In this document: positions 8,453 to 39,204 of the stretch, piece after piece
How the letters are laid out: every line of letters begins with the position of its first letter
Numbering within the stretch: the stretch's first letter is position 1
DNA from: Sulfuritalea sp.
Lineage (GTDB): Bacteria > Pseudomonadota > Gammaproteobacteria > Burkholderiales > Rhodocyclaceae
Direction of reading: 5' to 3'
Length of the DNA: 64,000 nt
NCBI GenBank assembly: GCA_016712985.1
Contig: JADJQA010000008.1
Location: 15,179 to 79,178, forward strand
Translations under genes and position numbers: made by a program
Notes under the pieces: model-generated
Database searches by the model: none
What the model saw: only the letters and a program-made list of their open reading frames with translations
What the model was told of the DNA's origin: nothing

Positions 8453-8504
8453 TTGCTGCGGCAGGAAGGCTTGCGCTCGCCGCAGCGCCAGCGCCGACTT
8501 TCGG

Positions 8505-14207: not shown

Positions 14208-14290
14208 TACCGGCAGGAAAGTAGCACCAGAGGGCAGTATCGAGCCTGCGCCAATGGGCTGACTGCCACACTGACGAATCCACCTGCCGA

Positions 14291-15870: not shown

Positions 15871-15876
15871 CCCGGC

Positions 15877-16239: not shown

Positions 16240-16391
16240 GCTTGGTTGTCTGACAGACCAGCCGACACGCTGCCCGAACCCCATACTCCCCCGGCCTCCA
16301 AGCCGCTCACATGAACCGGCTCTCGCGATACGGCGATATCGTTCAAATGCGCCGGGAGTATAGATGAATCCCATGCACGAAGCGGACTGCG

Positions 16392-23185: not shown

Positions 23186-24112
23186 TTACGAATCCTCGCG
23201 CGGCGCTTCGTCCGCAACCACATGCATGAATGCCGCTTCAAGTGACAACGATGGTTTGACCTCGCGCAACTGGTGATTCAGCATCCGAAGCTGATCGAGC
23301 ACTACCCATAGTTCGGAACGGGGCACCTCGGCCACCCAATTGCCCGCGCTTTCCTCGCGCGCCCGCGGAAATGCGGCGGAGCCGCTGCTGCGAACCATGA
23401 CCAGATCCTCGCTGCCGAGCAGTTCGGCAGGAGAGCGAACCGAACGCAGTTCGCCCTTGTGGATGAGGCCGAACCGATCCGCCAGTCTCTCGACATCGTG
23501 CAGTACGTGGGAGGTGAAGAACAAGGTACCGCCACCGCGCTTGTAGTCGGCCAGTATATCGACGACTTCGCGCCGACCGATCGGGTCCAGACCGCTCAGC
23601 GGTTCATCGAGCACCAGCAGGCGGGGATTGACGGCCATCGCGTTGGCCAGCGTCACGCGCTGGGTCATGCCTTTAGAGAAGGAGCGAACCGGTGCCGAAG
23701 CGACATCCGCGACACCCAACCGTTCCAGCCAGGCCATCGCCTGCCGGCGCGTTCCACCACCTTCCCGGCACTTGTGCAGGCGCAAACTCATCGAAACGAT
23801 CTCGAGCGGCGTAAGGTAATCGTACAGGCAGGGGTTCTCCGGGACATAACCAACCCGGATTCGGGCCTCGGGCAGCGCGGCATCGATGCCAAACAATTTG
23901 CAACTGCCGCGGGTTGCCCGTGCGAGGCCCATCAGGACTCTGATGGTGCTGCTCTTGCCCGCGCCGTTGGGCCCGACGAAGCCGAATGCCTCGCCCTCTG
24001 GAACTTCCATCGAAACGCCCGACACGGCCTTGACCGGTCGGCGCATCACCCCCTCGGCGTAGATTTTTTCCAGATTCTCGATTTGTATCGCCAGCATGGC
24101 TACTTTACCCAA
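23186..24112 (-). CDS. ABC transporter ATP-binding protein
   Basis: Walker A GPNGAGKSST, signature LSGLDP (degenerate LSGG), Walker B LLVLDEP. Confidence 0.9.
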   Translation of the reverse strand: MGKVAMLAIQIENLEKIYAEGVMRRPVKAVSGVSMEVPEGEAFGFVGPNGAGKSSTIRVLMGLARATRGSCKLFGIDAALPEARIRVGYVPENPCLYDYLTPLEIVSMSLRLHKCREGGGTRRQAMAWLERLGVADVASAPVRSFSKGMTQRVTLANAMAVNPRLLVLDEPLSGLDPIGRREVVDILADYKRGGGTLFFTSHVLHDVERLADRFGLIHKGELRSVRSPAELLGSEDLVMVRSSGSAAFPRAREESAGNWVAEVPRSELWVVLDQLRMLNHQLREVKPSLSLEAAFMHVVADEAPREDS

Positions 24113-24131
24113 AACGATTCTTGCGGGAACA

Positions 24132-24929
24132 TCAACGACGGGAGGCGAAAACAGGCTCGCCGTGTTCGTCCAGCGCGTAACCCCGATTGAAAGGGTCCGG
24201 GGGAATCCGCTCGATCAACCCGGCCGCCACGAGTTGATTCAGGTCGGTCAACGGCTGCCCATGGATTTCACGATAGCGCTGAGTCAGGGCTTGCAGCGCT
24301 GCCAGATCGCGCAGTCGCTGTGCCCTGTGGTTCAGATAGCGTTTGAACCTGCCGGGAGACGCATTGTCCGCCATGCGGCCGACGAGCTGTGCCGCATCGC
24401 CGGCACTGTAGCCGCGCTCTATCCAACGCGCCGCAAGGTTCTGCATGGTCCAGCTTTCCGCTTCGTCTCGCATGCGCGGCACGGCCTCGAGCAAGACCTG
24501 CGCCCCGCCAATGGGATCCTTCTCGAAGAAGTACTTGTTGAACCCCAGGTAGAACAGCGGCTGCCAGTCGTTGGGACGGGCATCTGCCGCCCGACGCAGG
24601 ATGTATTGCGCGGCCGGCATCAGTTCCGGTACCGACAGAATGGCCGCCGCGATGTAGTAGTTGTCTTCGTGAGCCGGGTTGAACCAGGAAACGTCGCGCT
24701 GGAGTTGCGCCTGTACCTGCAACTCGTCCGGCCCCATGCGATACGTCTCGGAAACCAGAATTCGGAACCCGCTAAGGTTGGCGGCGAGATACTTGTCGCC
24801 TGCCGCCATGGCGATCTGGAATACCAGCGGCAGACGCACCACGAGTTCGCGGCTGCGCTCATGCAACTGCTCCCGCGAGCCATGAATGTTCGAAAGTCCG
24901 AACATCATCGCGGCGAACACCAGCAGCAT
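24132..24929 (-). CDS. membrane-anchored hypothetical protein (transporter accessory?)
   Basis: One N-terminal hydrophobic anchor (MLLVFAAMMFGL) followed by a soluble helical domain. Lies between the permease and the ATPase. Start uncertain: ATG 24929 or TTG 24971. Confidence 0.45.
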   Translation of the reverse strand: MLLVFAAMMFGLSNIHGSREQLHERSRELVVRLPLVFQIAMAAGDKYLAANLSGFRILVSETYRMGPDELQVQAQLQRDVSWFNPAHEDNYYIAAAILSVPELMPAAQYILRRAADARPNDWQPLFYLGFNKYFFEKDPIGGAQVLLEAVPRMRDEAESWTMQNLAARWIERGYSAGDAAQLVGRMADNASPGRFKRYLNHRAQRLRDLAALQALTQRYREIHGQPLTDLNQLVAAGLIERIPPDPFNRGYALDEHGEPVFASRR

Positions 24930-24967
24930 GCCGCCGCGATAGCGGACGGCCAGCGCGTGAAAATCCC

Positions 24968-25783
24968 TCAAGAAAACTCCCGCTGCTGCAAGGCACGCAC
25001 ACCAAGGCCGACGGCGATTGCCGCGTACGACAGGGCCATGATGACTGCCCAGGTCATGTGCTCTGCGGATGGAGTCGCACCGTACAGCGACCATTGGCGC
25101 CAATCGAGACGGGAAAGATCGGGAATCAGCCAGCGCACGGTATCGACCCACGGGCCCAACTTCCCGACCAACGCCGTATCACCGTCCGCCCCGCTCGACA
25201 GGTAGTCAACCGACGCACCCAGAGCTTTGCCGCTGATCGCAAACGCCGCGCCGAGCGCCAGAGGCAGTACCGGAACGGTGGAAATCATGGCAATTGCCGA
25301 GGCCACAGCCGAAACGACCGCGACATCGAGCACAATGCCGGCAAGCGCGACCAGGAATGGCAAACCCAGGTCAACAGGAAACTCCTGCTCATAGCGCGGA
25401 CTGGCCAGCAACACCGCAAGCAGGAGACAAAAGCCGAGAATGGCTATGGAAATGCCGACAAGGACCACGATCGAAAGGTAGCGCCCGACAAAGAACTCGG
25501 AACGCGATGTCGGCAAGGCCAGGGGATGCAGGATGATCTTGCGGTCGATCTCGCGAGTGAAGAGTTCTTGCACCCAAAACAGCGCCAGGAGGACCATGGT
25601 GAAACGCACGACCGAAAACCCGATGTCCAGCGCGATCGTTTGCGGCTGGCGCGGCGAAAAGCTTCCGGCGAGGTAGGCAAACGCGATCAAGACCAGGCCG
25701 AGAACAAAGGTCACCTGGATGCTGCGGCCACGCAGGCCGGAAAGCATGCCCGACCAAGTGAATTCAAGGGCTCGAAAATGCAT
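24968..25783 (-). CDS. ABC-2 type transporter permease
   Basis: 271 aa with about 6 hydrophobic segments. Same operon as the ABC ATPase. Confidence 0.65.
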   Translation of the reverse strand: MHFRALEFTWSGMLSGLRGRSIQVTFVLGLVLIAFAYLAGSFSPRQPQTIALDIGFSVVRFTMVLLALFWVQELFTREIDRKIILHPLALPTSRSEFFVGRYLSIVVLVGISIAILGFCLLLAVLLASPRYEQEFPVDLGLPFLVALAGIVLDVAVVSAVASAIAMISTVPVLPLALGAAFAISGKALGASVDYLSSGADGDTALVGKLGPWVDTVRWLIPDLSRLDWRQWSLYGATPSAEHMTWAVIMALSYAAIAVGLGVRALQQREFS

Positions 25784-25791
25784 TCACATTG

Positions 25792-25831
25792 CCAAATAAA
25801 AGTGGCGGGCAAACCCGAGGGTTTGCCCGCC
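25792..25831 (-). terminator. rho-independent terminator after the pilin pair
   Basis: Perfect 13-bp stem GGCGGGCAAACCC / GGGTTTGCCCGCC (25804-25831), followed on the minus strand by ACTTTTATTTGG. Confidence 0.75.
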
Positions 25832-25860
25832 AATCTGAACCACTTGAAACTACCCGGTGA

Positions 25861-26241
25861 TCAGCCCGAAGTCGGGTTGTTGGTGCTGGTGAGCGCGCTT
25901 GTGGCGGCAGCGGAATTGCAGGATGTACCGGTACAGGTGGCTTCGCTGGTCACCGAACCGCCGGCGGTGGAACCGCGGAAGGAGCGGCTGCCGGCCGAGG
26001 AAACCGCGCCGACGCGGAAATAGGACTTTTGCTGGTCATAGACCATGTGCACGTTTGCAGAGCACTTTGCCGAAAATGAGTTGACCACCATCTCATTCGT
26101 AGCACTGGTGTCGACAGTGATCGTACCGTTGCCGGCAGACGTCGGCGCAGCGCAGACGACACCGGATGTAGCCGCGTTTGCATCAACCATCGCCGATAGG
26201 GCAACAGTCGTGAGAACGGACGCAAGAATAATTTTCTTCAT
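25861..26241 (-). CDS. secreted Cys-containing Ser/Thr-rich protein, candidate split-pilin globular partner (PilA-C-like)
   Basis: 126 aa. Sec signal peptide MKKIILASVLTTVALSAMVDANA|AT. Four Cys in the mature part and an S/T/G-rich C-terminus. The start is 13 nt after the short pilin stop, with RBS GGGAG. Confidence 0.6.
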   Translation of the reverse strand: MKKIILASVLTTVALSAMVDANAATSGVVCAAPTSAGNGTITVDTSATNEMVVNSFSAKCSANVHMVYDQQKSYFRVGAVSSAGSRSFRGSTAGGSVTSEATCTGTSCNSAAATSALTSTNNPTSG

Positions 26242-26254
26242 TGTAGGCTCCCTA

Positions 26255-26437
26255 TCAGTTGGTTGAATTGGCAGTCGCCTGGGTCAACAGGTTCTTGCCG
26301 TCGGATTGAGCAGCCTTGTCGTTGCCCTTTTTGGTGTACTCACTGAACTGAGGAATGGCGATGGCGGCGAGGATACCGATAATCGCAACAACGATCATTA
26401 ATTCGATCAGCGTAAAACCTTTTTGCAGCTTGGTCAT
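26255..26437 (-). CDS. truncated type IVa pilin (60-aa prepilin, 53-aa mature)
   Basis: MTKLQKG|[24 protein letters not shown] is a canonical class III leader with Gly-1/Phe+1/Glu+5. The ORF stops after only about 30 residues beyond the alpha-1 helix. RBS AGGAGA lies 8 nt upstream. Confidence 0.85.
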
Positions 26438-26486: not shown

Positions 26487-26502
26487 AGCACGAAGCGTGC
26501 CG
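26487..26502 (-). promoter_or_regulatory. candidate sigma-54 (-24/-12) promoter for the pilin pair
   Basis: The minus strand reads cGGCACGcttcGTGCTt, against the consensus TGGCACG-N4-TTGCW. GG-N10-GC spacing is satisfied. The site lies about 50-65 nt upstream of ATG 26437. Confidence 0.45.
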
Positions 26503-26648: not shown

Positions 26649-28274
26649 TCAATTCCGAAGCAGCGCCGCGACATCCACTTCATCGATCTGCCCCGCGTCA
26701 AGAAACTGCTCGGCGTAACGCCGATAGACGCCCTGTTTGACGAACACATCGAACAGGTCGGGATCGATATGGCCATTCTTCTTGAAATTCGTCATGATGC
26801 CCATGGCCTGTGACAGCTTCATGCCGGGCTTGTAGGGGCGATCGCGCGCTGTCAGCGCCTCGAAGATGTCGGCGATGCCCATCATGCGCGCCTGCCATGA
26901 CATCTGTTCGCGGGTCAGGCCCTTGGGGTAGCCCTTGCCGTCCATGCGCTCGTGATGCCCGCCGGCGTATTCGGGCACCTTGGTCAGGTGCCGCGGCCAC
27001 GGCAGTTGCTCCAGCATCTTGATCGTGGCGACGATGTGATGATTGATGATTTCGCGTTCCTTTTGCGTCAGGGTGCCGGCGCGGATGCCCAGGTTGAGCA
27101 TCTCGTCGGCATCGAGGAACTCGGCCTCGACACCATCGACATTGCGCCATTTGCGCCCGCTGCCGATATCGCGGACGCGCTGCATGTCATCCTCCTTCAT
27201 GGCCTCGCCGCCGACATTGGCCTTGCGCAGAAACTGCCGATCTTCATCCAGCAAACGGAGTTCCTCCTGACAGTCCTTCCAGATCTGCTGGTCCGCCGCG
27301 GGATCGGCGTTTTCGCGCAGAGCGAGTTGCTTGCGCAGCGCCTTGATCTCCGCATCGCGTTTGAGCACTTCGAAACGCGTTTCGACCAGATGGATACGGT
27401 CGAACAGCGTCTGCAGCTTGGTAGCCTTGTCGACCACATGAACCGGGGTGGTGACCTTGCCGCAATCGTGCAGCAAGCCGGCGATCTTGAGTTCGTAGCG
27501 ATCGCGTTCATCCATTCTGAACGAGGCCAGCGGTCCTTCCGTGGTCGCGTCGACCGCCTCCGCCAGCATCATGGTCAAGGCCGGCACGCGCTGGCAATGG
27601 CCGCCCGTGTAGGGCGATTTCTCGTCAATTGCCATGTTGATCAGATTGATGAAGGCCTCGAACAGTTCTTCCAGCTGGCTGATCAGCAGGCGGTTGGTCA
27701 GGGCGATGGCGGCCTGCGAGGCCAGCGACTCGGCGAGGCTCTGGTCGGCCGAGGAAAACGGGGTCACCTGACGCGTCAGGGGATCCTGGGCGTTGATGAG
27801 TTGCAGCACGCCGATGATTTCGCCCTCATGGTTCTTCATCGGCACCGTGAGGAAAGACTGCGAGCGATAGCCGGTGCGCGCATCGAAGCTGCGGGTACCG
27901 GAAAAGTCGAAGCCGGCCTCGGTATAGGCGTCGGCGATATTCACCGTCTTGTCATGGATCGCGGCATGGGCGGCGACCATCGAGTCATTGGACTCGCCCT
28001 TGTCGTTGGTCAGCGGCAGGTTCGGGAAGTTGATGGCAACACCGGTGGTGCCGCCCATCGCGATGTTCAGCGAATCGGTGCGCAGGATCTCGAAGCGCAA
28101 GGCGCGCCGGTCCTCGGTCATCCGATACAGCGTTCCGCCATCGGCATGGGTAATGGTCTTGGCCGCGATCAGGATGGTCTCCAGCAGCCGATTGGTGTCA
28201 CGTTCCTTGGAAAGCGCGGCGCCGATGGCATTGAGTTGCTCAAGGCGGCGAAACAAGTCGGTGGAATTGTCCAT
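26649..28274 (-). CDS. GAF domain / HD-GYP phosphodiesterase
   Basis: 541 aa. N-terminal GAF-like region, HD motif (LLHDCGK) and GYP motif (GGHHERMDGKGYPKG). Confidence 0.85.
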   Translation of the reverse strand: MDNSTDLFRRLEQLNAIGAALSKERDTNRLLETILIAAKTITHADGGTLYRMTEDRRALRFEILRTDSLNIAMGGTTGVAINFPNLPLTNDKGESNDSMVAAHAAIHDKTVNIADAYTEAGFDFSGTRSFDARTGYRSQSFLTVPMKNHEGEIIGVLQLINAQDPLTRQVTPFSSADQSLAESLASQAAIALTNRLLISQLEELFEAFINLINMAIDEKSPYTGGHCQRVPALTMMLAEAVDATTEGPLASFRMDERDRYELKIAGLLHDCGKVTTPVHVVDKATKLQTLFDRIHLVETRFEVLKRDAEIKALRKQLALRENADPAADQQIWKDCQEELRLLDEDRQFLRKANVGGEAMKEDDMQRVRDIGSGRKWRNVDGVEAEFLDADEMLNLGIRAGTLTQKEREIINHHIVATIKMLEQLPWPRHLTKVPEYAGGHHERMDGKGYPKGLTREQMSWQARMMGIADIFEALTARDRPYKPGMKLSQAMGIMTNFKKNGHIDPDLFDVFVKQGVYRRYAEQFLDAGQIDEVDVAALLRN

Positions 28275-28283
28275 GTACCTTCC

Positions 28284-30659
28284 CTACTTGATGCAGACCG
28301 CCCGCACCTGCTTCAGATCGGTGACGCCCTGCAGGGCCTTTTCGAGGCCATCCATCTTCAGGGTCAGCATGCCGTCCTCGAGCGCCTGGGAGAACAACTG
28401 CGCCACCCGGGCGTGCTCCTGGATCAGCTTCTTCAGCGGCTCGGTGCCGATCATCAACTCGTGCAAGCCGACGCGACCCTTGTAGCCGCTGCCGCCACAG
28501 GTGTCGCAACCCTTGGCGCGGGTGAACACCAGATGGCCATCCTTGCCGTAATCATTGATCAGGCGCTCGAGCGTCGCGGCGTAAGCCGCATCCTTGTCCT
28601 TCTGGAAAGGCGCGGTATTGTCCAGTTCGCTGCAATACTCTTTCATGAACAGCCTGACTTCATCGGCGTCGGGCGTATAGCTCTCCTTGCACTTGCACAA
28701 CCGCTTGGCCAGCCGCTGGGCCAGGATGCCAAGCAGGGCATCCGAGAAGTTGAAGGGGTCCATGCCCATGTCGAGAAGACGAATGATTGATTCAGGCGCG
28801 CTGTTGGTGTGCAGGGTGGCGAACACCAGGTGGCCGGTGAGCGACGCCTCGATACCGATGCCGGTGGTTTCGGCATCGCGCATTTCGCCCACCATGATGA
28901 TGTCCGGATCAGCGCGCAGGAAGGCTTTCATCACCATCGGAAAGTCCATCACCTTCTTGTTGACCTGAACCTGGCGCAAGCCCTTCTGGGTAATTTCGAC
29001 GGGATCTTCGGCGGTCCATATCTTGGTATCCACGGTATTCAAGTAACCCAGCACCGAATGCAGCGTGGTGGTCTTGCCCGAGCCTGTCGGGCCGCAGACG
29101 AAGAACAGTCCGTAGGGCTTGGAGATGGTGGCCTTGAGCTTGGCCAGATTGGTCGGCAGCACGCCGAGCTTGTCGAGCGGGATGGGCTCGCCACCGGCCA
29201 GGATGCGCATCACGACATCCTCGACCCCGCCGGTGGAGGGAATCGTCGCCACCCGCAGCTCAATGTCCAGCGGGCCGTATTTCTTGAACTTGATCTTGCC
29301 GTCCTGGGGCTTGCGCCGCTCGGCAATGTCCAGGTCGCACATGATCTTGAGGCGTGCCACCATGGCGTTGCGGTAGCTCGCCGGCACTTCGATGTACTTC
29401 GCCAGCGAACCATCGCGACGGAAGCGGATCAACACCTTGTCCTTGCCCAGGCCCGGCTCGATGTGAATATCCGAAGCCCCCTGCTGATAGGCATCGATGA
29501 TGATCTTGTTGACCAGCTTGACCAGTTCGTTGTCCGACGCCGCCGAGATATCGTCACCGACACCGCCTTCCCCCTCCATGTCACCCTCATCGAGGGTTGA
29601 CAGCAGATCGCCGACGGAACTGTCGTCCATGAAACCGGGCACGCCCGAAGCTCCAAACAGGTAGTCGAGCGTCTGCACGAACTCATGGTTGGTGGTAACC
29701 CGATAGACAACCTTCGCCCGCGGAAACACATTGTTGACGACACGCGAGCCCTTGACCTGCTCGGGGTCCATGCAGACTACCGTCAAGCCTTCAGCCCCCT
29801 CGTCGACCGGAGCCCATCTGGCCTGTTCCAGAAAATCCCGCTTGAGGTTTTTCAGCAGGTCGGCCGGTTTCACGCGGTCGGACCTGAACGGCTCGTAAGG
29901 CACATTGAAGAACTTCCCCAAGGCGGCGCCCAGGGCCTCGTGCTTGACTTGAAACTCGTTGACCAGAACTTGTTCTATGTCGAGATTCTTGCGTCGCGCG
30001 GTGCGCGTCGCCAGCTCCAGTTCCTGTGCCGAAATGACGGCGTCGGAAACCAGAGAATCGTACTTGGACTTGGCCTTGACGGCATGTACCGGCTTGCTGC
30101 GCTGGTTAAAGGCAATCGCCAGCGTTTCGCACAGGCCCTTGATACCCTCCTCTGCAACGGTTGCAAAGGGAGCGCCCGCCTTGTTGTTGATGATCTGCAC
30201 GACGCCCATCAACTCGCCGCTTTGCGCATCGACGATCGGGCCCACCAGGACCTGCTTGGTGCGATATCCAGTCCGCTTGTCAACTTCCTGCAGGAAGCGC
30301 AGCGAAGGATTGATCTCCTTGAGTTCCGCTTCGTCATAGACGTCGCGGATATTCACTATCTTCTTGGCCAGCGCGACATGGCCGGCGATACTCTGGTCGG
30401 CGATCGGCAGGCGCAGATCCTTGAACGAATTCAGGCCTGTCTTGACTTTGGAGACAATGGAAGCCTTGTCGTCGCCGACGGAATAGATTGTCAGGCGGTC
30501 GGCATTGAACAGGCTGCAGATCTCGGCGGACAGCTCCAGCATGATTTCATCGATGTTGGACGTCGCATGAATCTTGTTGGTGACAAGCTGAAGGTTCTTG
30601 AAGAAAGTCAGACGGCTGTCCACGTCGGACGCGGAGGTGGCAACAGGCACGGCGTTCAT
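28284..30659 (-). CDS. GspE/PilB-family secretion ATPase with N-terminal GAF domain
   Basis: 791 aa. GAF-like N-terminus, a T2SSE_N-like linker, Walker A GPTGSGKTTT and Walker B DPDIIMVGEMRD. Tetracysteine motif CKCK...CDTCGGSGYKGR. Confidence 0.9.
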   Translation of the reverse strand: MNAVPVATSASDVDSRLTFFKNLQLVTNKIHATSNIDEIMLELSAEICSLFNADRLTIYSVGDDKASIVSKVKTGLNSFKDLRLPIADQSIAGHVALAKKIVNIRDVYDEAELKEINPSLRFLQEVDKRTGYRTKQVLVGPIVDAQSGELMGVVQIINNKAGAPFATVAEEGIKGLCETLAIAFNQRSKPVHAVKAKSKYDSLVSDAVISAQELELATRTARRKNLDIEQVLVNEFQVKHEALGAALGKFFNVPYEPFRSDRVKPADLLKNLKRDFLEQARWAPVDEGAEGLTVVCMDPEQVKGSRVVNNVFPRAKVVYRVTTNHEFVQTLDYLFGASGVPGFMDDSSVGDLLSTLDEGDMEGEGGVGDDISAASDNELVKLVNKIIIDAYQQGASDIHIEPGLGKDKVLIRFRRDGSLAKYIEVPASYRNAMVARLKIMCDLDIAERRKPQDGKIKFKKYGPLDIELRVATIPSTGGVEDVVMRILAGGEPIPLDKLGVLPTNLAKLKATISKPYGLFFVCGPTGSGKTTTLHSVLGYLNTVDTKIWTAEDPVEITQKGLRQVQVNKKVMDFPMVMKAFLRADPDIIMVGEMRDAETTGIGIEASLTGHLVFATLHTNSAPESIIRLLDMGMDPFNFSDALLGILAQRLAKRLCKCKESYTPDADEVRLFMKEYCSELDNTAPFQKDKDAAYAATLERLINDYGKDGHLVFTRAKGCDTCGGSGYKGRVGLHELMIGTEPLKKLIQEHARVAQLFSQALEDGMLTLKMDGLEKALQGVTDLKQVRAVCIK

Positions 30660-31732
30660 TCGACTGCCTCCTTGGCGCCAGCATGCGCCCTCATGCCGCC
30701 GTCAAGCAGTGCCGCGTGAAGTCCGCGCTGCGACAGCAAGAACGCGGCGGCGGAACTGCGACGTCCCGTCTGGCAATAGACAATGTAGTTCCTTGCCGGA
30801 TCCAGCGCAGCCGAGGCCTGACGAATGTCGTTGAGCGGAATGTTGATGGCACCCGGATAGCCGTCACTCTGATACTCGGCGGGGAAGCGCACATCGATCC
30901 AGATCGCCCCGGCGGCAACCCGCCGTTCGCCCTCGACGCCGGTGACTCTCTGCAGCAGCGGCGCGAGCAGCAACTGGTTGAAATCCTGCTTCGACAAGCA
31001 CAGCAGCATGCCATCCGTATTCATCGTCACGCTTGCATTGCGCACCGTATCGGCGACCAGCGCCTCTTCGCCAAAAGCATCGCCTTCCTTGAGTTCCGCC
31101 AACTGCACCGGAGATCCGGCAACCAGTCGGGAAACCTTGCAGCGCCCGCGTTCGATCAGATAGTAGTAATCGCCCGGATCACCCTGCTTGACTATTATCT
31201 GACCGCGTTTCACGGGAACGCGCCTGAACTTCGCCAGCAGCGACTGAATATTGGCCGGGGGCAGGGAAGCAAAGCTGCCCACGGTAAGGTTCTCCAGGGC
31301 GAGCATGCCGGACATCATGCTCCAGTCTGTTTGATCGGCGCTACGATGCTCGCCCTCGCTGGAGGTGACGAGCTGGTTCCAGGTGACGACGATGTCCAGG
31401 CTGTCCTCCTCGAGGCTGAGCAGTTCGACGTCCGTAATGGCCTTGCCTGCTGACGGGACTTTCCCCCCGCGCGCCAGGGGAGCGGTAGCAAGATCATGGC
31501 CTCCCACCAGCACACGCGCAGCGCCGTCCGGCATTTTCACCCAGAGCTGCCCGCGCAGCAGGTATACCACTTGAGTGCTCCAGTTGTTGGTGGCACGAAA
31601 CGGGTCGGTGGCGCGTGCGAAGGCATGCGTGCGACAGAGCGGCAGCAACAGCCGCAAGCCTTCGCTGCCCAGTGATTTCAGGGGTTGCAGGCGGGCCAGC
31701 AGGTCAACGTCCACCGTGTCAGCCACGATCAA
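30656..31732 (-). CDS. tandem cyclic-nucleotide-binding domains fused to a rhodanese domain
   Basis: 358 aa with two CAP-type cNMP folds (second: GDPGDYYYLIERGRCKV...GDAFGEEAL). C-terminal rhodanese with active-site loop CQTGRRS. ATGA overlaps at both ends. Confidence 0.8.
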   Translation of the reverse strand: MIVADTVDVDLLARLQPLKSLGSEGLRLLLPLCRTHAFARATDPFRATNNWSTQVVYLLRGQLWVKMPDGAARVLVGGHDLATAPLARGGKVPSAGKAITDVELLSLEEDSLDIVVTWNQLVTSSEGEHRSADQTDWSMMSGMLALENLTVGSFASLPPANIQSLLAKFRRVPVKRGQIIVKQGDPGDYYYLIERGRCKVSRLVAGSPVQLAELKEGDAFGEEALVADTVRNASVTMNTDGMLLCLSKQDFNQLLLAPLLQRVTGVEGERRVAAGAIWIDVRFPAEYQSDGYPGAINIPLNDIRQASAALDPARNYIVYCQTGRRSSAAAFLLSQRGLHAALLDGGMRAHAGAKEAVE

Positions 31733-32496
31733 ATCTCGAACAACTGGTTGTTTTGCAGCATCCGGGGGCAGAATTCACCGATGCGGTCTTCGATCTCTTG
31801 CATGGTCAATTCGACCTGTCCGGGTTTCAGATGGGTGATGAAAACCTCCGCATCGCGCTGCAGACTTGCCAGTTCTTCCAGCAGCATACTCGGGCACAAA
31901 TGCAGGGACGCCACGGCCAGAGCCTTTTCCCGGTCCGAGAACGCACACTCGATGATCAGGTAGCGCAGATTGAGAATGCTGTTGACGTGCGTCCAGAGAC
32001 CGGGGCATGGCCCGGTATCACCGGTAAACACCAGACTGGCATCTCCGGAATCAAGCTGGTATCCGACCGCGGGGACGGTGTGATTCGCCGGCAGCGGAAT
32101 TATCTTGCGGCCATCAAGGATCACGGACTGCCCAACGTGTATGGTTTCAAAGCGCAGAAAGGGTTTCTCCGCCTTCGGTATCTCGCTGAAATCGGGCCAT
32201 ATTGCCCAGTTGAAAATATGCGAACGGATAATTTCAAGCGTCGCATCGGTCGCATGCACTATCAGCGGGCGATTGCGCATGTCCCCCACCGTATCGATCA
32301 TGAACGGCAGGCAGGCCAGATGGTCCAGATGCGAGTGGGTAATGAAGACATGATCAATCTGGGCCAGCTCGGCGATCGCCAGGTCGCCGACTCCGGTTCC
32401 GGCATCGATCAGAATGTCGTTGTCGACCAGAAGCGAGGTGGTACGCAGATGGCGCCCGCCAATTCCGCCGCTACAACCGAGAATGCGTACCTTCAT
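31729..32496 (-). CDS. class II 3',5'-cyclic-nucleotide phosphodiesterase (MBL fold)
   Basis: 255 aa. MKVRILGCSGG... followed by the THSHLDH signature typical of class II cAMP phosphodiesterases. Confidence 0.8.
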   Translation of the reverse strand: MKVRILGCSGGIGGRHLRTTSLLVDNDILIDAGTGVGDLAIAELAQIDHVFITHSHLDHLACLPFMIDTVGDMRNRPLIVHATDATLEIIRSHIFNWAIWPDFSEIPKAEKPFLRFETIHVGQSVILDGRKIIPLPANHTVPAVGYQLDSGDASLVFTGDTGPCPGLWTHVNSILNLRYLIIECAFSDREKALAVASLHLCPSMLLEELASLQRDAEVFITHLKPGQVELTMQEIEDRIGEFCPRMLQNNQLFEI

Positions 32497-32623
32497 CGTT
32501 CCGCCACCTGTGCTGCGCCGCTCCCCGCAGACGGCAATCCAGCGCCCGGAAACCGCCGCAATGGCTGAACCGGGATCGCCCGCTTGTCCGACAAGGAAAA
32601 TGGGGGGTAAGTTCTCATTTCGT

Positions 32624-34839
32624 CTAGAATATGGTCACGCCATCCCAGTTTTCTCCTGGGGATTCCTTGCGCAGGTGTTCAACGCGTTTGACGTACAGAT
32701 CGTAAAGATAGCGCGGCTTGATGCGTTGCAGATTCATCAGCGTCACTTCCGCCTTGTCCCAGTCCTGGGCGCGGTAGCTGCGCAAAGCCTGATTCCAGAG
32801 CTTGATCTCTTCCAGGTCCTCACGAGAGACCTGGCCCTCCTCGCCGACCGGCTCGTAAATGGCCACGGGATCTTCCTTGCCCTTGACCCGCACGCGATCC
32901 AGTTCGCGGAAGACAAATTCCTTCTTCAGCAGTTCGCGCGTGCTCTCGCCAGCGATCATGCCCACCCCGTACTGCTTGGTGATACCTTCCAGGCGCGATC
33001 CAAGGTTGACCGCGTCGCCCATGACGGTGTAAGACTGCCGCACCGGCGATCCCATGTCGCCAACGGTCATCGTACCGGTATTCACCCCAACACCGATCTT
33101 CAGTTCCGGCCAGCCGCGCGCAAGAAGACCCTTGTTCAGCTCGTCGAGTGCGACATGCATTTCCAGCCCTGTACGAACCGCGTTCTTCGCATGCCCGGAT
33201 CATCGACCGGCGCACCCCAGAAGGCCATGATTGCGTCGCCGATGTATTTGTCGAGCGTTCCGCGATGTTTGCGCACCACCACGGTCATCGCGCCGAGGTA
33301 TTCGTTCATCAAGCTTGCCAACTGGTCCGGCTCCAGCCCTTCGGAAATCGTCGTGAATCCGCGCACATCGGAAAACAGCACGGTCAGTTCTGCCTTGCGC
33401 CCGGCCATGCTGTAGTTCTCCGGATCGCGGCTCATCTCCTCGACCAGTTCCGGCGGCACATACTGGCCGAACAGGCCGGTCAACTGACGCTTGGTCCGCG
33501 ACTCGACAAAGTATCCCCACGACATGTTCGTGGCATAGAGCAGCACGATCGCGATAATGCCATTCGCCAGCGGCAACACGACATTCGACACATGCCAAAA
33601 ACTGAAATTCACGATGAGCGCCAGCAGCAGGAGCAGGACCCCGACCAAGGTGGCCCGCAATGGTGACAACATCGGCAGCAGGAAAGCCATCACTGCCCCC
33701 GAGATCAGCACCAGCAACACATCGGCACCGAGAATATAGGGTGCCTTGTGCTTGATCGCTCCGTCCAGCATGCCCGCGATCAGGTTGGCGTGGATCTCGA
33801 CCCCCGGATACGCCGCGCCCACCGGGGTGGCACGCAAGTCCATGAGCCCCGGCGCCGTGGTGCCAACCACAATCACGCGCCCCGCGAGTTGGTCCTTGGG
33901 AACCCGATCGTTGAGCACGTCGGTTATCGAGATGTAGGGGAAGCTTCCCTGAAAGCCCCGATATGGAATCAATGTCGCCGCATTTTCGTCCACCGGAATG
34001 CGCATCACACCGCCCCCAGCGGCTTGCAGATCCAGCCACTCCATGGCCGCATAAGATGCCGGCGAACTTCCGGGATAGCCAGGGGTAATCGGCGGACCGC
34101 CGAGCAGATTGCGCACCATCGCCAGTGCCAGAGACTCGTAGTACTGACCTTTGTACTCGACCAGCAAGGGAACCCTCCGCGAGGTGCCATCCTGATCCAC
34201 CAGTGGATTGAAATGCCCGGCGCCAGCTGCGGCCTTCTGGAACTCGGGCAGGTTGCCGCCGTAGCTGACCCACTGTGTAAAGGCGATACGGCGGCCACTG
34301 AAGGTGCCGGCCGGGAATACGGAGTCCGGAGCAGCGCCGGAACTGGCGCCGCCCTCCTTGCTTGAGAAGTAGTAGCCGAGAATCACTGGCCGGTTCTTCA
34401 GCGCTGCGGCGAAGCGCGCATCGTTATCCAACAGCGGACGCAAGTCCCGCAGCGCCGTTTGGAAGCCTGGAATGTCCTTGAGTTCATTCTTCGCCAGGGA
34501 CTCCAGTGACTTGAGGCCCGAACTTTCGTCGGGCTCGGCGAAGACCACGTCGAAACCGACCAGCCTGACTCCGTACTGATCAAACAGCTTGTTCATCAAG
34601 GTCGCCAGTTTGTCCCGACCCCACGGCCAACGTCCCTGTTCGGCGAGCGACTTCTCGTCGATGTCGAGAATCACCACTCGCTGATCAATACTCCGTGGCA
34701 TGGTCAAGCGCACTTTCGCGTCGTAAATCAGCGCGTCCATGTGATTGATGAACGGAATCTGGTAAAACCGGGCCGAATGGCCGAGCAGCACCAGAATAAT
34801 CAGGAGTCCCAGCCCGTAGCGGGGAAGATACTGCTTCAA
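32624..34839 (-). pseudogene. CHASE2-sensor class III adenylate cyclase, one frameshift
   Basis: CHASE2 block (VVILDIDEKSLAEQGRWPWGRD) and TM segments. The cyclase domain is split at about 33185: ...KYIGDAIMAFWGAPVDDPG then HAKNAVRTGLEMHVA... in the next frame, with one G apparently missing in CCGGGC. Probable TTG start at 34839 (MKQYLPRYGLGLL). Confidence 0.85.
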
Positions 34840-34870
34840 AGGATCTCCGGCGCTTGCTTCATCCTCGAGG

Positions 34871-35620
34871 TTAGTTCTTGAGGAAAAATTCCATCTTGGT
34901 TCCCGCCAGTTCGACGACATCATGGTCGGCAAGTGGATGCGCCTGGGCGTCGAGCGCCTTGCCGTTGACCACCGGGAAGTTGGCGCCCTCGACGTGCGTA
35001 ATGAAGTAGCCATGGGGGCGACGCGCGATGACCGCAACCTGCACACCCGGCCTGCCCAGCGTGGTCAGGCTCTTGGTTAACTCCATTTCCTTGCCGGCGT
35101 TGGCGCCCGAAAGTATCTGGATCGCGCCCAATGGCAGCACAGGCGCTGCCGCGGGGCGAGCCAATGGCGGCTGCGCAGCCATTCCCGGCGAGGTCGCGGA
35201 GTGAGCCGGAACGGCGGGCGCCGGAGCAGCCGCCGCGGCAGGAGCCATAGGAGCAGCAGGAGCCGGCTGATGCGCCGCTCCGGGACGCAGGATCATGGTC
35301 TTTTCGAAATCCGCGCTTGAGGTCTGCTGTGGAACCTCGCCGACATACTTCAGGCGGTACTTGCCAAGCTCGATGACGTCGCCATTCTGCAGGAAGTGCT
35401 TCTTGACCGACTGGCCATTGATGAAAGTGCCGTTGGTGCTGCCCAAATCTTCCAGAAAGGAATCATTGAGAATGGTGATCACCACGGCGTGCTCGCCGGA
35501 AATAGCCAGATTGTCGATCTGGATATCGTTGTGCGGCTTGCGACCAATCGTGGTGCGCTCCTTGGTCAAGGGGATTTCCTTGAGCATCGTGGTTTCCATG
35601 CTGAGTATGAGCTTAGCCAT
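34871..35620 (-). CDS. double FHA-domain protein
   Basis: 249 aa. N-terminal FHA (TIGRKPHNDIQIDNLAISGEHAVV...GSTNGTFING), an Ala/Pro-rich linker, then a second FHA-like domain (TLGRPGVQVAVIARRPHGYFITHVEG). Confidence 0.85.
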   Translation of the reverse strand: MAKLILSMETTMLKEIPLTKERTTIGRKPHNDIQIDNLAISGEHAVVITILNDSFLEDLGSTNGTFINGQSVKKHFLQNGDVIELGKYRLKYVGEVPQQTSSADFEKTMILRPGAAHQPAPAAPMAPAAAAAPAPAVPAHSATSPGMAAQPPLARPAAAPVLPLGAIQILSGANAGKEMELTKSLTTLGRPGVQVAVIARRPHGYFITHVEGANFPVVNGKALDAQAHPLADHDVVELAGTKMEFFLKN

Positions 35621-35662
35621 TGTCTTCGTCCTCGGAGGTCACTGAGCGTACATTAAAGACTC

Positions 35663-36484
35663 TTACTTGAACCAGGCCAGGAAGCGAGCCCACCAGCCGC
35701 GCGCCGCCGGATATTCGCCCTTCACCCTGACCAGGATTACCGAAACATTGTCACGGCCACCGTTGTCGTTGGCCATCTGAATCAACTGCGTCGCGCACAA
35801 GTCGAGATTGGCTGACAAGGCGCCAACAGTCATGGCAAGTTCCTCGTCGTCCACCATGTCGTTGAGGCCGTCGGAACAAAACAGGTAGACGTCGCCCGGC
35901 AAGACGTCATGGTCGTGTATCTCGGCCTGCACCTCGGGATCGATGCCGACGGCTCGCGTGACCAGATTCTTGTTCTGCGAAAAGCGTGCCTGCTCCGAAG
36001 TGATCAGACCGCTGTCGATCTGCTCCTGCAGCAGCGAATGATCGCGCGTTATCTGGGAGAACTCGTCACCACGCCAACGGTACAGCCGCGAGTCACCAAT
36101 GTGGCCGACAGTCACCTTGTTGTCGTGAAACACAGCGACCACCAGCGTTGTTCCCATCCCGGCATATTGCGGCTGGCTCAGTGCCGCCTGATAGATGGTG
36201 GCATTGACCCGAGCCATTTCCTTCTCCAGGGAGACTTGCGCCCAGGACTTGCCGGAAGCGTCCATGCTGCTGGGCTCGCGTGCAATGAAGGCTTTCTCAA
36301 GTTCGGTGCCGAGCAGCGCCGTTGCCATGCCGCTGGCGACCTCGCCAGCGTTGTAGCCGCCCATGCCATCGGCCAGCACGGCGAACCCGCGCTGCGGATT
36401 GGCCATGACCGCGTCCTCATTGTTGGTGCGCACCGAGCCGGGATCGCTGCGAGTGACAATTTCGAGAACGGCATTCATGTCCAT
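35663..36484 (-). CDS. PP2C-family Ser/Thr phosphatase
   Basis: 273 aa. RTNNEDA, LADGMGG and CSDGL...DN motifs. Confidence 0.9.
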   Translation of the reverse strand: MDMNAVLEIVTRSDPGSVRTNNEDAVMANPQRGFAVLADGMGGYNAGEVASGMATALLGTELEKAFIAREPSSMDASGKSWAQVSLEKEMARVNATIYQAALSQPQYAGMGTTLVVAVFHDNKVTVGHIGDSRLYRWRGDEFSQITRDHSLLQEQIDSGLITSEQARFSQNKNLVTRAVGIDPEVQAEIHDHDVLPGDVYLFCSDGLNDMVDDEELAMTVGALSANLDLCATQLIQMANDNGGRDNVSVILVRVKGEYPAARGWWARFLAWFK

Positions 36485-36494
36485 TGTGCGCCCC

Positions 36495-39071
36495 TCAAAG
36501 GCTGATATCGACGCCGGAATCGGCGGCGGCAGGGGCGGTTCCGCCGCCAGTCATGCAGGTGCGAACGTCTTGCGCGAACTCCGCGCCTGTCTGGTAGCGC
36601 GCGTCCGGATCCTTGGTCATCGCCTTGTCGATGACCGCCACGACGCAGTCAGGCAGATCGGGGTTGAAGCCGCGTATGTCGGGATGCGGCTCGTTGGCGA
36701 TCTTGAACATCAGTTGCGCCATCGAATCGCCCTCGAAGGGCAGCTTGCCGCACGACATCTGGTACAGCATCACGCCCAGGGAGAACAGGTCGGAACGACC
36801 ATCGATCTTCTTGCCGGCGAGTTGCTCCGGCGACATGTAGCTCGGCGTGCCGAGCACCATGCCGGTCTTGGTCTTCGACGAATCGGTAATGCGCGCAATG
36901 CCGAAGTCGGTCACCTTTACCTGGTCGGCATCGGGCTCGTACATGATGTTCGCCGGCTTGATGTCACGATGCACGACATTGTTTTCGTGCGCATAGGACA
37001 GCGCATCGGCCACCCGCGCGACAATGCTCAGGACGCGTGGCAACGGCATCAGATTGCCCTGCTTGGTGTAGGGCGCCAGATCCTTGCCCTTGAGGAACTC
37101 CATCGCGATGTAGGCGAGATCGTGCTCCTCGCCGGCATCGAACATCGTGACGATATTGGCGTGGTTGAGGCGCCCCGCGGTTTCGGCCTCGCGGAAGAAA
37201 CGTTCCTTGACCTCGACCAGTTCGTCCGCCTCGAACTCCTGCGCGAGCGCCATGGTCTTGATCGCCACCACGCGATTGATCTTCGGATCGCGTCCAAGGT
37301 AGACCACGCCCATCGCCCCCTTGCCCAGCTCCTTCTCGATTTCGTAACGACCGAGCATCGGCTTTTCGACATTCCCCGCGGTATCGATCAGGCTGGCATT
37401 GCTGCGCCCCCCTCCACCGCCACCAAGAATCACCGTTTCCGAAAGCTGCTTGGCGCGGTTCAGGCGAGTTTCAATGTCGCGGAATTTCGGGTTGAAATCG
37501 AATATGTAGCGGAATGCCGCCTCCGCCTTGTTGAACTGGCGCTTGCGTTCGAAGTCTAGCGCCAGGTTGTACAGGTTCTCCATCAAGGCGTCATCCATCG
37601 GGCACTTGCGGAACTTGTCGAAGGCCATGTCAAGCTGTCCCTGGCCCTGGAAGGCCAACCCCAGCATGCGGTTCGACTCGGCCGAATCGGCATCGGACTT
37701 TTCCTTGCCGCGCTCGGAAACCAGGAAGCGTTTGGTGGTCAGCAGGAGATGGCCGACCAGCAGCAGAGTCGCCGGCACCATCAACTGCAGCCACATCAAC
37801 TGCGTCGTCATCAGCGTGAAATGAACGACGATCAATGCCACCAGCAGTCCCGCAGTGATGCCCGCCGCCATGCCGGCCTTGATCTTCGGCAACAACCCGA
37901 TCAGGTAGGCAGCGATCAGCAGGAACACCAGCTTTTCGACCCAGAAGCCCCAGGTCGGGGCGACGAAGAAATGCTCGGAAAGCAGGCTGGATACCGCATG
38001 CGCCTGCATCAGCACGGCCGGCATGGTCGGGCTGATCGGAGTGACAAACACACTGCCCACCGAAGATGACGTCGGCCCGATCAGGACGATCTTGTCGCGG
38101 TACTTGTCGTAGGGAATCTTGCCGCTCTTGACGTCGAAGAACGAATCCACCGGGAAGGCCGGGTGGCCATCACGGTCCTTGTAGTAGAAGGTCAGCATAC
38201 GCGTGTCGAGGTCGGTACCTATCTTGAGCTTGCCCAGCTTGACCGAGTCGCCGGCTGTTACCTGTATGTCCGCCACGGTCAGGTTGTCGCTCCTGGCCGC
38301 CACCAGCAGCGACAGCGAGGGATAGGCCTGATCGAAGTAGGACAGCACCAGTGGTTCGGTGCGAATCGCACCATCCACATCGGGAGTCACATTGAGATGG
38401 CCGATTGAGGCGGCCACCAGACCGAGCGGCTCGATCACGCCGGCATCGACCCCGAGGGTCGGATAGGGCGGCGCATCCGCGGCGCCAAGCAGCTTGACTG
38501 CGTTCTTCTTCACGTAATCGGGCAGTTCCTTGTCCGGCCGTCCGCGCGGCTCACCGAGCACGAAAAGCATGGGCAGCGCCACGTTCCCCGCCTTGGCGAA
38601 CGCATCGGCCAGGCGGCGGTCGGTGTTCAGCTTCTGGTCCGCCTCGAGCAGGATCGACTCGATCTGCGGGCAGGAGGATGCAGCGGTGGAAGCCTCGCCT
38701 GCCGCAGGCCTTGTGGCAACGCCGCAGGTCTGCATCAGCTTGCTGATATACACCAAGCCTTGATCGCGCTGCGGCTCGGAGTAGAACACGGTGGTGGCGA
38801 TCACCTTGGCTTTTGCCGCGGCAAGCTTGTCCACCATGTCGGCCATAACCTCGCGCGACCAGGGCCAGCGGCCAATGTTGTCGAGACTCGGCTTGTCGAT
38901 CGCAATCACGGCGACCTTGTCCGACGGAGTGCGCGAAGCAGCCGCCACACCCATGTCGTAAGCCTTGCGCTCCAGCCCCTGCAGTAGCTCGCCATTACCC
39001 AGAATCAGTACGACGACGCTGACGACAACACCGAAGAACCAGTCACTTTTCCAGAAGTCTGCCTTCTTCAT
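36495..39071 (-). CDS. CHASE2-sensor Ser/Thr protein kinase (kinase domain C-terminal)
   Basis: 858 aa. N-terminal CHASE2 (VAVIAIDKPSLDNIGRWPWSRE), TM block and a TPR-like linker. Hanks kinase motifs: GKGAMGVVY, VAIK, HRDIKPANIM, DFGIA, SPEQ. Confidence 0.9.
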   Translation of the reverse strand: MKKADFWKSDWFFGVVVSVVVLILGNGELLQGLERKAYDMGVAAASRTPSDKVAVIAIDKPSLDNIGRWPWSREVMADMVDKLAAAKAKVIATTVFYSEPQRDQGLVYISKLMQTCGVATRPAAGEASTAASSCPQIESILLEADQKLNTDRRLADAFAKAGNVALPMLFVLGEPRGRPDKELPDYVKKNAVKLLGAADAPPYPTLGVDAGVIEPLGLVAASIGHLNVTPDVDGAIRTEPLVLSYFDQAYPSLSLLVAARSDNLTVADIQVTAGDSVKLGKLKIGTDLDTRMLTFYYKDRDGHPAFPVDSFFDVKSGKIPYDKYRDKIVLIGPTSSSVGSVFVTPISPTMPAVLMQAHAVSSLLSEHFFVAPTWGFWVEKLVFLLIAAYLIGLLPKIKAGMAAGITAGLLVALIVVHFTLMTTQLMWLQLMVPATLLLVGHLLLTTKRFLVSERGKEKSDADSAESNRMLGLAFQGQGQLDMAFDKFRKCPMDDALMENLYNLALDFERKRQFNKAEAAFRYIFDFNPKFRDIETRLNRAKQLSETVILGGGGGGRSNASLIDTAGNVEKPMLGRYEIEKELGKGAMGVVYLGRDPKINRVVAIKTMALAQEFEADELVEVKERFFREAETAGRLNHANIVTMFDAGEEHDLAYIAMEFLKGKDLAPYTKQGNLMPLPRVLSIVARVADALSYAHENNVVHRDIKPANIMYEPDADQVKVTDFGIARITDSSKTKTGMVLGTPSYMSPEQLAGKKIDGRSDLFSLGVMLYQMSCGKLPFEGDSMAQLMFKIANEPHPDIRGFNPDLPDCVVAVIDKAMTKDPDARYQTGAEFAQDVRTCMTGGGTAPAAADSGVDISL

Positions 39072-39204
39072 CGGTCGCTACCTTGTGTGAGAGCCCTCAT
39101 TAAAACAGGACAATAAACGCAATTCTTACAGTCCTGCATCAACTCCGTCAATCAATTTCATGACATTTCGCCGGTTGGTGAAGCAATCTGCGGATTTTAT
39201 GCGC

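Follow-up and report, generated by a model that had tools for sequence, protein, structure and literature searches.

A conserved operon of signalling genes and a PilB-like ATPase beside the pilin gene of Sulfuritalea-like betaproteobacteria, and its possible role in the control of type IVa pili

This study examined an operon of Sulfuritalea sp. (contig JADJQA010000008.1) that lies on the minus strand at positions 26649-39071 of a 64,000-nt stretch of DNA, hereafter the window. The operon combines a PilB-like ATPase with proteins of Ser/Thr phosphorylation, cyclic nucleoside monophosphate (cNMP) and cyclic di-GMP (c-di-GMP) signalling, and a pilin gene follows it directly. Domains were assigned with Pfam and NCBIfam, at curated cut-offs, on the translated open reading frames (ORFs) of the window. 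In the direction of transcription, the operon and the adjoining pilin locus contain the following features:

39122-39151, minus strand: candidate sigma-70-like promoter (TTGACG, 18 nt, AAGAAT with TG), a pattern match from a consensus scan only
36495-39071, minus strand: CHASE2-transmembrane-Hanks Ser/Thr kinase, 858 aa (Pfam CHASE2 3e-54, Pkinase 7e-55)
35663-36484, minus strand: PP2C-type Ser/Thr phosphatase, 273 aa (Pfam PP2C_2; NCBIfam Stp1_PP2C_phos)
34871-35620, minus strand: FHA adaptor, 249 aa (Pfam FHA 3e-22)
32624-34839, minus strand: CHASE2-transmembrane-class III nucleotide cyclase (Pfam matches on both ORF pieces)
31729-32496, minus strand: predicted phosphodiesterase (PDE) with metallo-beta-lactamase (MBL) fold, class II cNMP-PDE / Apyc1 type, 255 aa (Pfam Lactamase_B_2 1e-15, PDEase_II 3e-10)
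30656-31732, minus strand: cNMP-binding and rhodanese protein (Pfam cNMP_binding 5e-22, Rhodanese 2e-13)
28284-30659, minus strand: PilB/GspE-class ATPase with an N-terminal GAF domain and a degenerate MshEN domain, 791 aa (Pfam T2SSE 2.6e-107, GAF, MshEN)
26649-28274, minus strand: GAF-HD-GYP phosphodiesterase, 541 aa (Pfam HD_5 1.8e-43, GAF 5.9e-14)
26487-26502, minus strand: sigma-54-type -24/-12 element cGGCACgcttcGTGCT, from reading of the sequence
26255-26437, minus strand: type IV prepilin of 60 aa, N-methylation motif and alpha-1 helix only (Pfam N_methyl 1e-10)
25861-26241, minus strand: signal-peptide partner protein of the short pilin, 126 aa (from position and homologues)
25803-25832, minus strand: strong intrinsic terminator at the end of the pilin/partner unit (13-bp stem with 9 GC pairs, followed by a T tract)

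The eight genes of the operon are co-directional and tightly packed, with successive gaps of 10, 42, 31, 127, -4, -4 and 9 nt, and these coordinates and gaps reproduce those of the first-pass annotation, which had been made from the sequence alone. The PDE stop overlaps the start of the cNMP-rhodanese gene, whose own stop overlaps the ATPase start, and no strong or convincing terminator was detected within the eight-gene block. The promoter candidate falls in the 219-nt gap between sucD and the kinase gene; an Rfam scan of positions 20000-42000 returned no riboswitch or leader RNA match at E <= 0.1. Pfam and NCBIfam confirmed every domain type named in the first-pass annotation; its double FHA protein and its two cNMP-binding domains proved to be overstated.

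The ATPase has the T2SSE core and the cysteine motif typical of extension ATPases: its translation contains GPTGSGKTTT, DPDIIMVGEMRD, TGHLVFATLHTN and CKCK...CDTC, which provide the Walker A, Walker B, Asp/His boxes and CxC...CxxC cysteines. It scored 452.4 bits on the PilB model TIGR02538 and 402 bits on the GspE model TIGR02533, below the equivalog cut-off of 675.65 and the cut-off of 630.25, respectively. In the PDB, its best match was PilB of Myxococcus xanthus (3jc8; E 8.7e-100), followed by Thermus PilF and Geobacter PilB, with GspE after these; the window scans revealed no type II secretion genes and hence no linkage to gspC-M or gspD there. The two cysteine pairs are separated by ~41 residues (residues ~668-710), as against ~14 in M. 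xanthus PilB, and the extra ~27 aa in this C-terminal subdomain read as a family-specific insertion. Judged by these sequence features, the ATPase is best classed as a divergent paralogue of PilB. Its MshEN domain gave a Pfam match of 30.3 bits. MshE-type c-di-GMP binding is marked by two tandem 24-residue motifs, RLGxx(L/V/I)(L/V/I)xxG(L/V/I)(L/V/I)xxxxLxxxLxxQ; in a scan with the strict and the relaxed published pattern, in which the positive control matched, the relaxed motif was absent from the window ATPase and from all sequences set beside it, 120 close homologues and 26 distant representatives. The N-terminal GAF domain was matched best by the cAMP-binding GAF of CyaB2 (7e-26) and by the cNMP-binding GAFs of PDE2 and PDE10. 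In this paralogue, the c-di-GMP pocket appears to be lost and a cNMP-type GAF gained. The neighbouring GAF-HD-GYP protein carries intact HDCGK and HHERMDGKGYP motifs in the expected GAF plus HD-GYP architecture, and the best PDB matches of its GAF domain were PDE5 and CyaB2, with the GAF of PmGH (4mcw) also among the matches.

The domain types of a writer, an eraser and several readers of a cyclic mononucleotide, which the first-pass annotation had recognised, are indeed present. In the cyclase, the CHASE2 and catalytic domains and the motifs FSD, DKYIGD, YTVMGD and VNLGSR are recognisable, across a frameshift in the window that the annotation had missed. Bacterial adenylate cyclases typically have the pair of Lys (DKYIGD) and Thr (YTVMGD) seen here, which makes cAMP the likely messenger. 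The PDE has the HSHLDH motif and reached 40.2 bits on PF02112 (cut-off 23.7) in a match that spans 60 residues only; it scored 36.6 on the NCBIfam model cyc_nuc_deg_phdiest (cut-off 400), and its orthologues match PF23023 Apyc1. The cNMP-rhodanese protein shows FGEEAL...RNAS in its cyclic nucleotide-binding (CNB) domain and CQTGRRS, with the active-site Cys, in its rhodanese domain. Pfam detected a single cNMP domain in this protein and no DNA-binding domain. A profile of the N-terminal 150 aa yielded nine weak matches in the PDB, eight of them to CNB folds; the region lacks the phosphate-binding cassette, and an hhalign test for internal duplication of the CNB domain gave no support (1.1 % probability). 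The protein therefore has one canonical cNMP-binding domain, preceded by what looks like a divergent CNB-like fold.

A kinase/phosphatase/FHA triad like the PpkA/PppA/Fha1 switch of the type VI secretion system (T6SS) had also been proposed, and all three domain types are there. The kinase translation contains the VAIK, HRD and DFG motifs, and the phosphatase scored 244 bits on Stp1_PP2C_phos, above the cut-off of 230. The FHA adaptor consists of a canonical N-terminal FHA domain, an Ala/Pro-rich linker and a C-terminal FHA-like domain. Pfam detected only the former; hhalign matched the two halves with 88.6 % probability (E 2.6e-6), and the C-terminal domain has lost the S-x-x-H loop, the segment with the Ser and His contacts to phosphothreonine (pThr). 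Here as in the T6SS pathway, genes for a Hanks kinase, a PP2C phosphatase and an FHA reader are clustered beside that for a machine ATPase. The likeness ends at the secretion system itself: no T6SS genes were seen in the window, and the FHA protein scored 43.4 bits on the TagH model TIGR03354, below its cut-off of 120.25. The window kinase, moreover, bears a CHASE2 sensor and is absent in 14 of 60 related genomes.

Directly downstream of the HD-GYP gene lies the split pilin pair, as the first-pass annotation had noted. The top PDB matches of the 60-aa pilin were to Geobacter PilA-N, "geopilin domain 1" (9egp, 1e-15; 7tgg, 1.8e-15; 2m7g/6vk9, 1.6e-13), so that it is a truncated pilin of the PilA-N kind found in the Geobacter geopilin pair. 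The partner protein had no Pfam, NCBIfam or PDB sequence match; 79 homologues of it occur in Sulfuritalea, Accumulibacter and Azonexus. Homology of the partner to PilA-C was considered and rejected, as phmmer against the PDB was empty and Foldseek gave no significant match. In the AlphaFold model used for that comparison, whose quality is limiting (41 sequences, pLDDT 71), 6vk9_1 ranked 30th with E 7.7 and a TM score of 0.19-0.21. Because a PilA-C match is lacking, the window pair is likened to that of Geobacter by its arrangement and the PilA-N match only.

The GC dinucleotide of the sigma-54-type element sits 50 nt upstream of the pilin ATG. Of 52 related loci, 31 have a match to the strict TGGCAC-N5-TTGC pattern upstream of the pilin, and most of the others are near-consensus. 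A sigma-54 element, a pilin and a terminator are the signature of a major pilin gene, and the locus looks like a major type IVa pilin locus. In Geobacter, pilB-pilT-pilC-pilSR lie upstream of pilA-N/pilA-C. The window shares with that locus, and with pilAB of Azoarcus, a pilin of ~60 aa followed by a small exported protein; it differs from Geobacter in a partner without sequence or fold match to PilA-C, model quality limiting the fold test. In Azoarcus sp. BH72, a sigma-54 promoter drives the pilAB pair, which is required for type IV pili (PMC3262810). There pilSR lies upstream, whereas the signalling/ATPase operon takes that position in the window.

Conservation was studied in a scan of species-representative genomes with the N-terminal region of the ATPase, which gave at least 575 relatives. 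The best 80 loci, 65-89 % identical, were analysed, and their gene order was read by tblastn of the window proteins; upstream genes were counted in 60 species-level loci with sufficient flank and the HD-GYP gene in 66. The order sucCD, kinase, PP2C, FHA, cyclase, PDE, cNMP-rhodanese, ATPase, HD-GYP and pilin recurs. PP2C and FHA are present in all 60 loci, PDE in 59, cNMP-rhodanese in 52, cyclase in 50 and kinase in 46; the HD-GYP gene was found in 65 of 66. The complete six-gene upstream set occurs in 45 of the 60 loci and the order is kept at least in part in every one, so that chance adjacency, the outcome by which the first-pass annotation would have been refuted, is not upheld: the recurrence is far above chance. 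Median identity is ~75 % for the ATPase, HD-GYP, PDE and kinase, 55 % for cNMP-rhodanese and 89 % for SucD, which places the ATPase, PDE and HD-GYP among the best-conserved proteins of the operon. The kinase was found only in loci that also have the cyclase. Kinase, cyclase and cNMP-rhodanese, absent in 8-14 of 60 loci, are dispensable add-ons.

A more distant setting is that of L087, a carrier on a 2.43-Mb contig with 44 % GC, whose ATPase, HD-GYP and PDE are 60-68 %, 64 % and 60 % identical to those of the window. Its locus has no kinase, PP2C, FHA, cyclase or sucCD, and the genes upstream differ wholly (TerC, Usp). It keeps the PDE, the ATPase and the GAF-HD-GYP protein, and 3' of this trio come a TGGCAT-N5-TTGC element, two full-length PF00114 pilins and a PglL-type enzyme. 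Because L087 keeps just these genes and a pilin follows HD-GYP across the loci, the invariant linkage is that of PDE, ATPase and HD-GYP with the pilin locus, and the rest is lineage-specific elaboration. The gene 3' of HD-GYP encodes a 59-60-aa pilin in 25 species, nearly all of which have the signal-peptide partner after it, and a full-length type IVa pilin of 134-174 aa in 26. The operon thus tracks the pilin locus and not a single pilin type.

The ATPase had been described as an orphan of a secretion or pilus machine. That description is not supported: a pilin gene with a sigma-54-type promoter lies immediately downstream in relatives, and L087 keeps PDE, ATPase, HD-GYP and pilin together, so the ATPase is probably not an orphan. 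The reading that we favour, with moderate confidence, is that of a conserved regulatory operon at the type IVa pilin locus of Sulfuritalea-like betaproteobacteria, serving as a cAMP/pThr-gated regulator or motor of type IVa pili. We infer the ligand, the direction of control, the phosphorylation target and the partner machine as follows. The core trio would consist of the MBL-fold cyclic-nucleotide PDE, a divergent hexameric ATPase of PilB type and the GAF-HD-GYP protein; the ATPase would have a dead c-di-GMP pocket in MshEN and, in its stead, the N-terminal cNMP-type GAF. To this trio most species add PP2C and FHA (always in this clade), CNB-rhodanese, the CHASE2 adenylate cyclase and the CHASE2 Hanks kinase. 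Both CHASE2 proteins would sense a shared envelope or periplasmic cue. The cyclase would raise cAMP, and the kinase would write pThr marks, with the FHA protein as their reader and PP2C as their eraser, a reversible switch as in T6SS control. Binding of cAMP to the GAF domain of the ATPase would switch its activity on a pilus platform encoded elsewhere and, in parallel, cAMP on the GAF domain of the HD-GYP protein would lower c-di-GMP. The CNB-rhodanese protein may be a third cAMP reader, and the MBL phosphodiesterase would remove cAMP and so reset the system. The predicted outputs are surface behaviour and the assembly of type IVa pili from the downstream pilin, which would be expressed from its own sigma-54 promoter.

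Several observations weigh against this reading. Neither the window nor the 10 kb on either side of the ATPase in annotated relatives contains a PilC, PilD, PilM-Q or PilT gene; a scan of ~50 ORFs across the window found no T2SSF/PilC, prepilin peptidase or secretin domain, which bears out the first-pass annotation on this point. Kinase and cyclase, which 10 to 14 of 60 genomes lack, are not core-essential. In most loci sucCD are syntenic too, upstream of the operon; because these genes are equally syntenic, conservation at this depth is by itself no proof of function, and part of it is vertical inheritance. Around GAF-ATPases with 28-41 % identity, the annotated portions of the contigs show no pilin. 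In the window, finally, frame analysis found the cyclase reading frame broken by a 1-nt deletion at 33194.

A more specific version of the favoured reading can be formulated, which we regard as tentative and on present evidence rather doubtful. The GAF-ATPase would be a second extension motor of the type IVa machine, gated directly by a cyclic mononucleotide: cAMP from the CHASE2 sensor would let it engage PilC in place of, or alongside, the canonical PilB, while the GAF-HD-GYP protein strips c-di-GMP and the pThr/FHA branch sets the threshold. If true, this would be the first pilus ATPase under direct control of cAMP and not c-di-GMP, with a dedicated writer, eraser and readers at the pilin locus.

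The block may instead consist of two or more independent modules kept together by descent, an envelope-stress set (CHASE2 kinase, PP2C, FHA and CHASE2 cyclase) and a pilus set (PDE, ATPase and HD-GYP), which do not converge on the ATPase. This is unlikely, though it has several points in its favour: the plainly unrelated sucCD are equally syntenic, kinase and cyclase are jointly lost in 10 of 60 genomes, the low-GC carrier L087 has the trio only, and the 127-nt gap between cyclase and PDE could house an internal promoter. However, PP2C and FHA adjoin the PDE/ATPase genes in 60 of 60 loci, even in those without kinase and cyclase, and the genes are co-directional with gaps of 10-42 nt or overlaps and no convincing internal terminator. 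The product of the cyclase, furthermore, is of the ligand class that the CNB and GAF domains encoded after it would be expected to read.

Somewhat less probable still is that the ATPase does not power pili at all and either acts in signalling, gated by a nucleotide, or drives a different export process, for example in control of the downstream ABC-2/glycan genes. A platform gene was not found nearby, an ABC-2 trio and ~20 kb of glycan genes lie downstream in the window, distant GAF-ATPases occur in non-pilus contexts, and PilB of M. xanthus is reported to be a signalling protein for exopolysaccharide (PMC5544727). On the other side, the ABC-2 trio goes with the short pilin, in 16 of 17 loci, whereas none of the 20 long-pilin loci with a retained operon has it, and the pilin gene is the sole neighbour that accompanies PDE-ATPase-HD-GYP into L087.

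The downstream genes form a group of their own. The ABC-2 exporter trio is on the minus strand and comprises an ABC-2 membrane protein (24968-25783), a 279-aa protein (24132-24971) and an ABC ATPase (23186-24112). Among loci with a short pilin, 16 of 17 have it 3' of that gene, as against none of 20 with a full-length pilin, and short pilin, partner and ABC-2 trio co-vary as a single module (window 23186-26437; loci L002-L070). Membership of the exporter in the ATPase operon was rejected, since it co-varies with the short pilin. The arrangement recalls Geobacter, where pilA-N/pilA-C are presumably closely followed by GSU1501 exopolysaccharide exporter genes; that GSU1501 is involved in exopolysaccharide synthesis is the one point confirmed by the published work. 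Further downstream, window positions 1-20000 hold a ~20-kb glycan-biosynthesis region with genes for GT4, radical SAM, epimerase, thiamine diphosphate (TPP) enzyme, NeuB-like, GT2, GtrA, amine-oxidase-like and methyltransferase proteins and two TPR-GT41 glycosyltransferases. Its products may act in the glycosylation of the pilin or in the making of a polysaccharide.

More than 120 close homologues of the ATPase (82-100 % identity) were found in Sulfuritalea, Sulfurisoma, Rugosibacter and other Rhodocyclales, and the GAF-MshEN-ATPase architecture is widespread, with 261 clusters at 50 % identity (E <= 1e-30). Sulfuritalea hydrogenivorans, Sulfurisoma sediminicola and Rugosibacter aromaticivorans are cultured carriers; complete genomes with the cluster include those of R. 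aromaticivorans (CP010554), Ca. Desulfobacillus denitrificans (AP021857) and S. hydrogenivorans. Distant GAF-ATPases (28-41 % identity) were seen at the contig end of a Nitrospinota metagenome-assembled genome (MAG), as tandem copies by topoisomerase IV genes and beside a GAF-PAS histidine kinase. The last two of these settings come from JGI sample 3300072015 and locus L088: two tandem copies with double GAF domains adjoin the topoisomerase IV genes, and another family member adjoins a GAF-PAS histidine kinase and a receiver; neither setting has pilus genes nearby. Because pilus genes are absent near these distant members, the wider GAF-MshEN-T2SSE family may have roles outside pili.

The frameshift in the cyclase raises the question of whether the module is decaying in this genome, the operon being a pseudogenised remnant. 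The cyclase is split into two window ORFs (33136-35046 and 32624-33160). Restoring one base at 33194 makes it read WGAPVDDPGHAKNAV, which resembles the intact Sulfurisoma orthologue, and an intact 741-aa cyclase is present in three independent Illumina short-read wastewater assemblies (L089-L091) of a strain that is 98.8 % identical over 16 kb. The window differs from L089 at ~30 gapped positions in these 16 kb, mostly in glycosyltransferase genes at 19.4-21.4 kb; across the ~9.4 kb of the operon that was compared, which lies between the end of the FHA gene and the HD-GYP stop codon, the deletion at 33194 is the sole indel. In addition, a protein identical to the window partner protein was found in a Sulfuritalea MAG contig. 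An assembly error is judged likelier than a pseudogene because the gene is intact in three assemblies, gaps occur elsewhere and the partner protein matches the Sulfuritalea MAG; the window indels suggest an error-prone assembly rather than true pseudogenes. A true frameshift, for which the deletion itself and the further indels in nearby glycosyltransferase genes would speak, is thus very improbable, all the more as the remaining catalytic motifs are all intact.

Other window indels relative to L089 lie at 25797, 23364-23367, 21387 and 19432-20602, and several of them break frames. One TPR-GT41 gene encodes 601 aa in the window (21380-23185) and 813 aa in L089, and the second GT41 gene is split at 18774-20572.

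An anti-phage signalling system of the Pycsar/CBASS kind, built from cyclase, cNMP-binding effector and kinase, was rejected as scarcely credible: PADLOC does match the kinase to PD-T4-6 and mad6, a cyclase fragment to PycC and the CNB domain to the N-terminus of a Pycsar effector, and the PDE resembles Apyc1, but these matches are domain-level only and confined to generic catalytic domains, the ATPase, FHA, PDE and HD-GYP proteins have no PADLOC match, no toxic effector domain is present, and the cluster is fixed beside sucCD in ~60 species and diverges with its host, unlike a mobile defence island.

Precedents exist for every component of the favoured pilus-control reading and for each pairwise signalling link, and the combination is a variation on second-messenger control of type IV pili, not a system of a new category. 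In general, c-di-GMP gates type IV pilus motors, either via MshEN or via the partners FimX/PilZ, and the known effect of cAMP on pili is transcriptional. Pseudomonas aeruginosa exemplifies the latter: its type IV pili are controlled by CyaB, CpdA, Vfr and FimL/Pil-Chp, with cAMP acting via a transcription factor. The window operon likewise appears to link pilus biogenesis with a predicted adenylate cyclase, a putative cAMP phosphodiesterase and a CNB-domain reader, but its predicted readers are a motor-fused GAF, a GAF-HD-GYP enzyme and a CNB-rhodanese protein. With MshE of Vibrio cholerae, PilB of M. xanthus and the PilB-PilZ-FimX system of Xanthomonas, the window ATPase shares the PilB/GspE-class hexameric core, an N-terminal regulatory region of MshEN fold and the expectation that a nucleotide second messenger gates filament assembly (PMC5013675). 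It differs from them in the missing 24-residue c-di-GMP motifs, the fused cNMP-type GAF, scores under the PilB and GspE cut-offs, the insertion of ~27 aa and its location away from pilC/pilD.

The nearest parallel to the HD-GYP enzyme is Tlr0485 of Thermosynechococcus, a GAF-HD-GYP protein whose c-di-GMP hydrolysis requires cAMP at the GAF domain (10.1101/2021.11.05.467447). The window enzyme shares the architecture and the intact HD and HHExxDGxGYP motifs of PmGH (4MCW) and Tlr0485, and by analogy it could hydrolyse c-di-GMP in a cAMP-dependent manner; unlike them, it has a fixed place in an operon that also encodes a GAF-ATPase and a putative cNMP phosphodiesterase and adjoins a pilin gene. 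Cross-talk from cAMP to cyclic dinucleotides is also described for Bd1971 (cNMP-binding-EAL) and GacB (cAMP-GAF-GGDEF) (PMC6717892; 10.1101/600031). In both, as would be the case here, a cyclic mononucleotide sensor domain controls a cyclic-dinucleotide enzyme; the output in the window is an HD-GYP domain, paired with a motor ATPase that bears a like sensor.

The surroundings of the operon contain further signalling genes. A second class III nucleotide cyclase of 426 aa (43253-44533, minus strand; Guanylate_cyc 1.3e-47) is encoded ~4 kb upstream of the operon, past sucCD and a divergently oriented 497-aa gene, and could be a source of cAMP separate from the CHASE2 cyclase. A LuxR-type response regulator (52668-53852) adjoins PAS-rich HisKA_3 kinases at 53859-55727 (minus strand) and 56163-58433 (plus strand). 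At 60234-64000, on the plus strand, a chemosensory cluster with a CheY-like receiver, a methyl-accepting chemotaxis protein, STAS and a CheA-like protein (Hpt, H-kinase_dim and HATPase_c) runs off the window end.

In sum, neither this cluster nor a PilB-like ATPase with a fused GAF and such partners was found to be described in the literature searched. To this extent, the first-pass view of an undescribed system stands; the evidence favours an accessory of an ordinary pilus over a free-standing secretion system, and its weight as a new secretion system is accordingly smaller. If confirmed, the operon would provide a direct post-translational route from cAMP to pilus assembly, and a compact example of pThr, cAMP and c-di-GMP meeting at one machine. 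The clade that carries it, made up of betaproteobacteria that are abundant in the environment, includes Sulfuritalea, Sulfurisoma, Rugosibacter and Sterolibacterium as well as many MAGs from wastewater and groundwater, and cultured carriers exist, which makes the idea directly testable.

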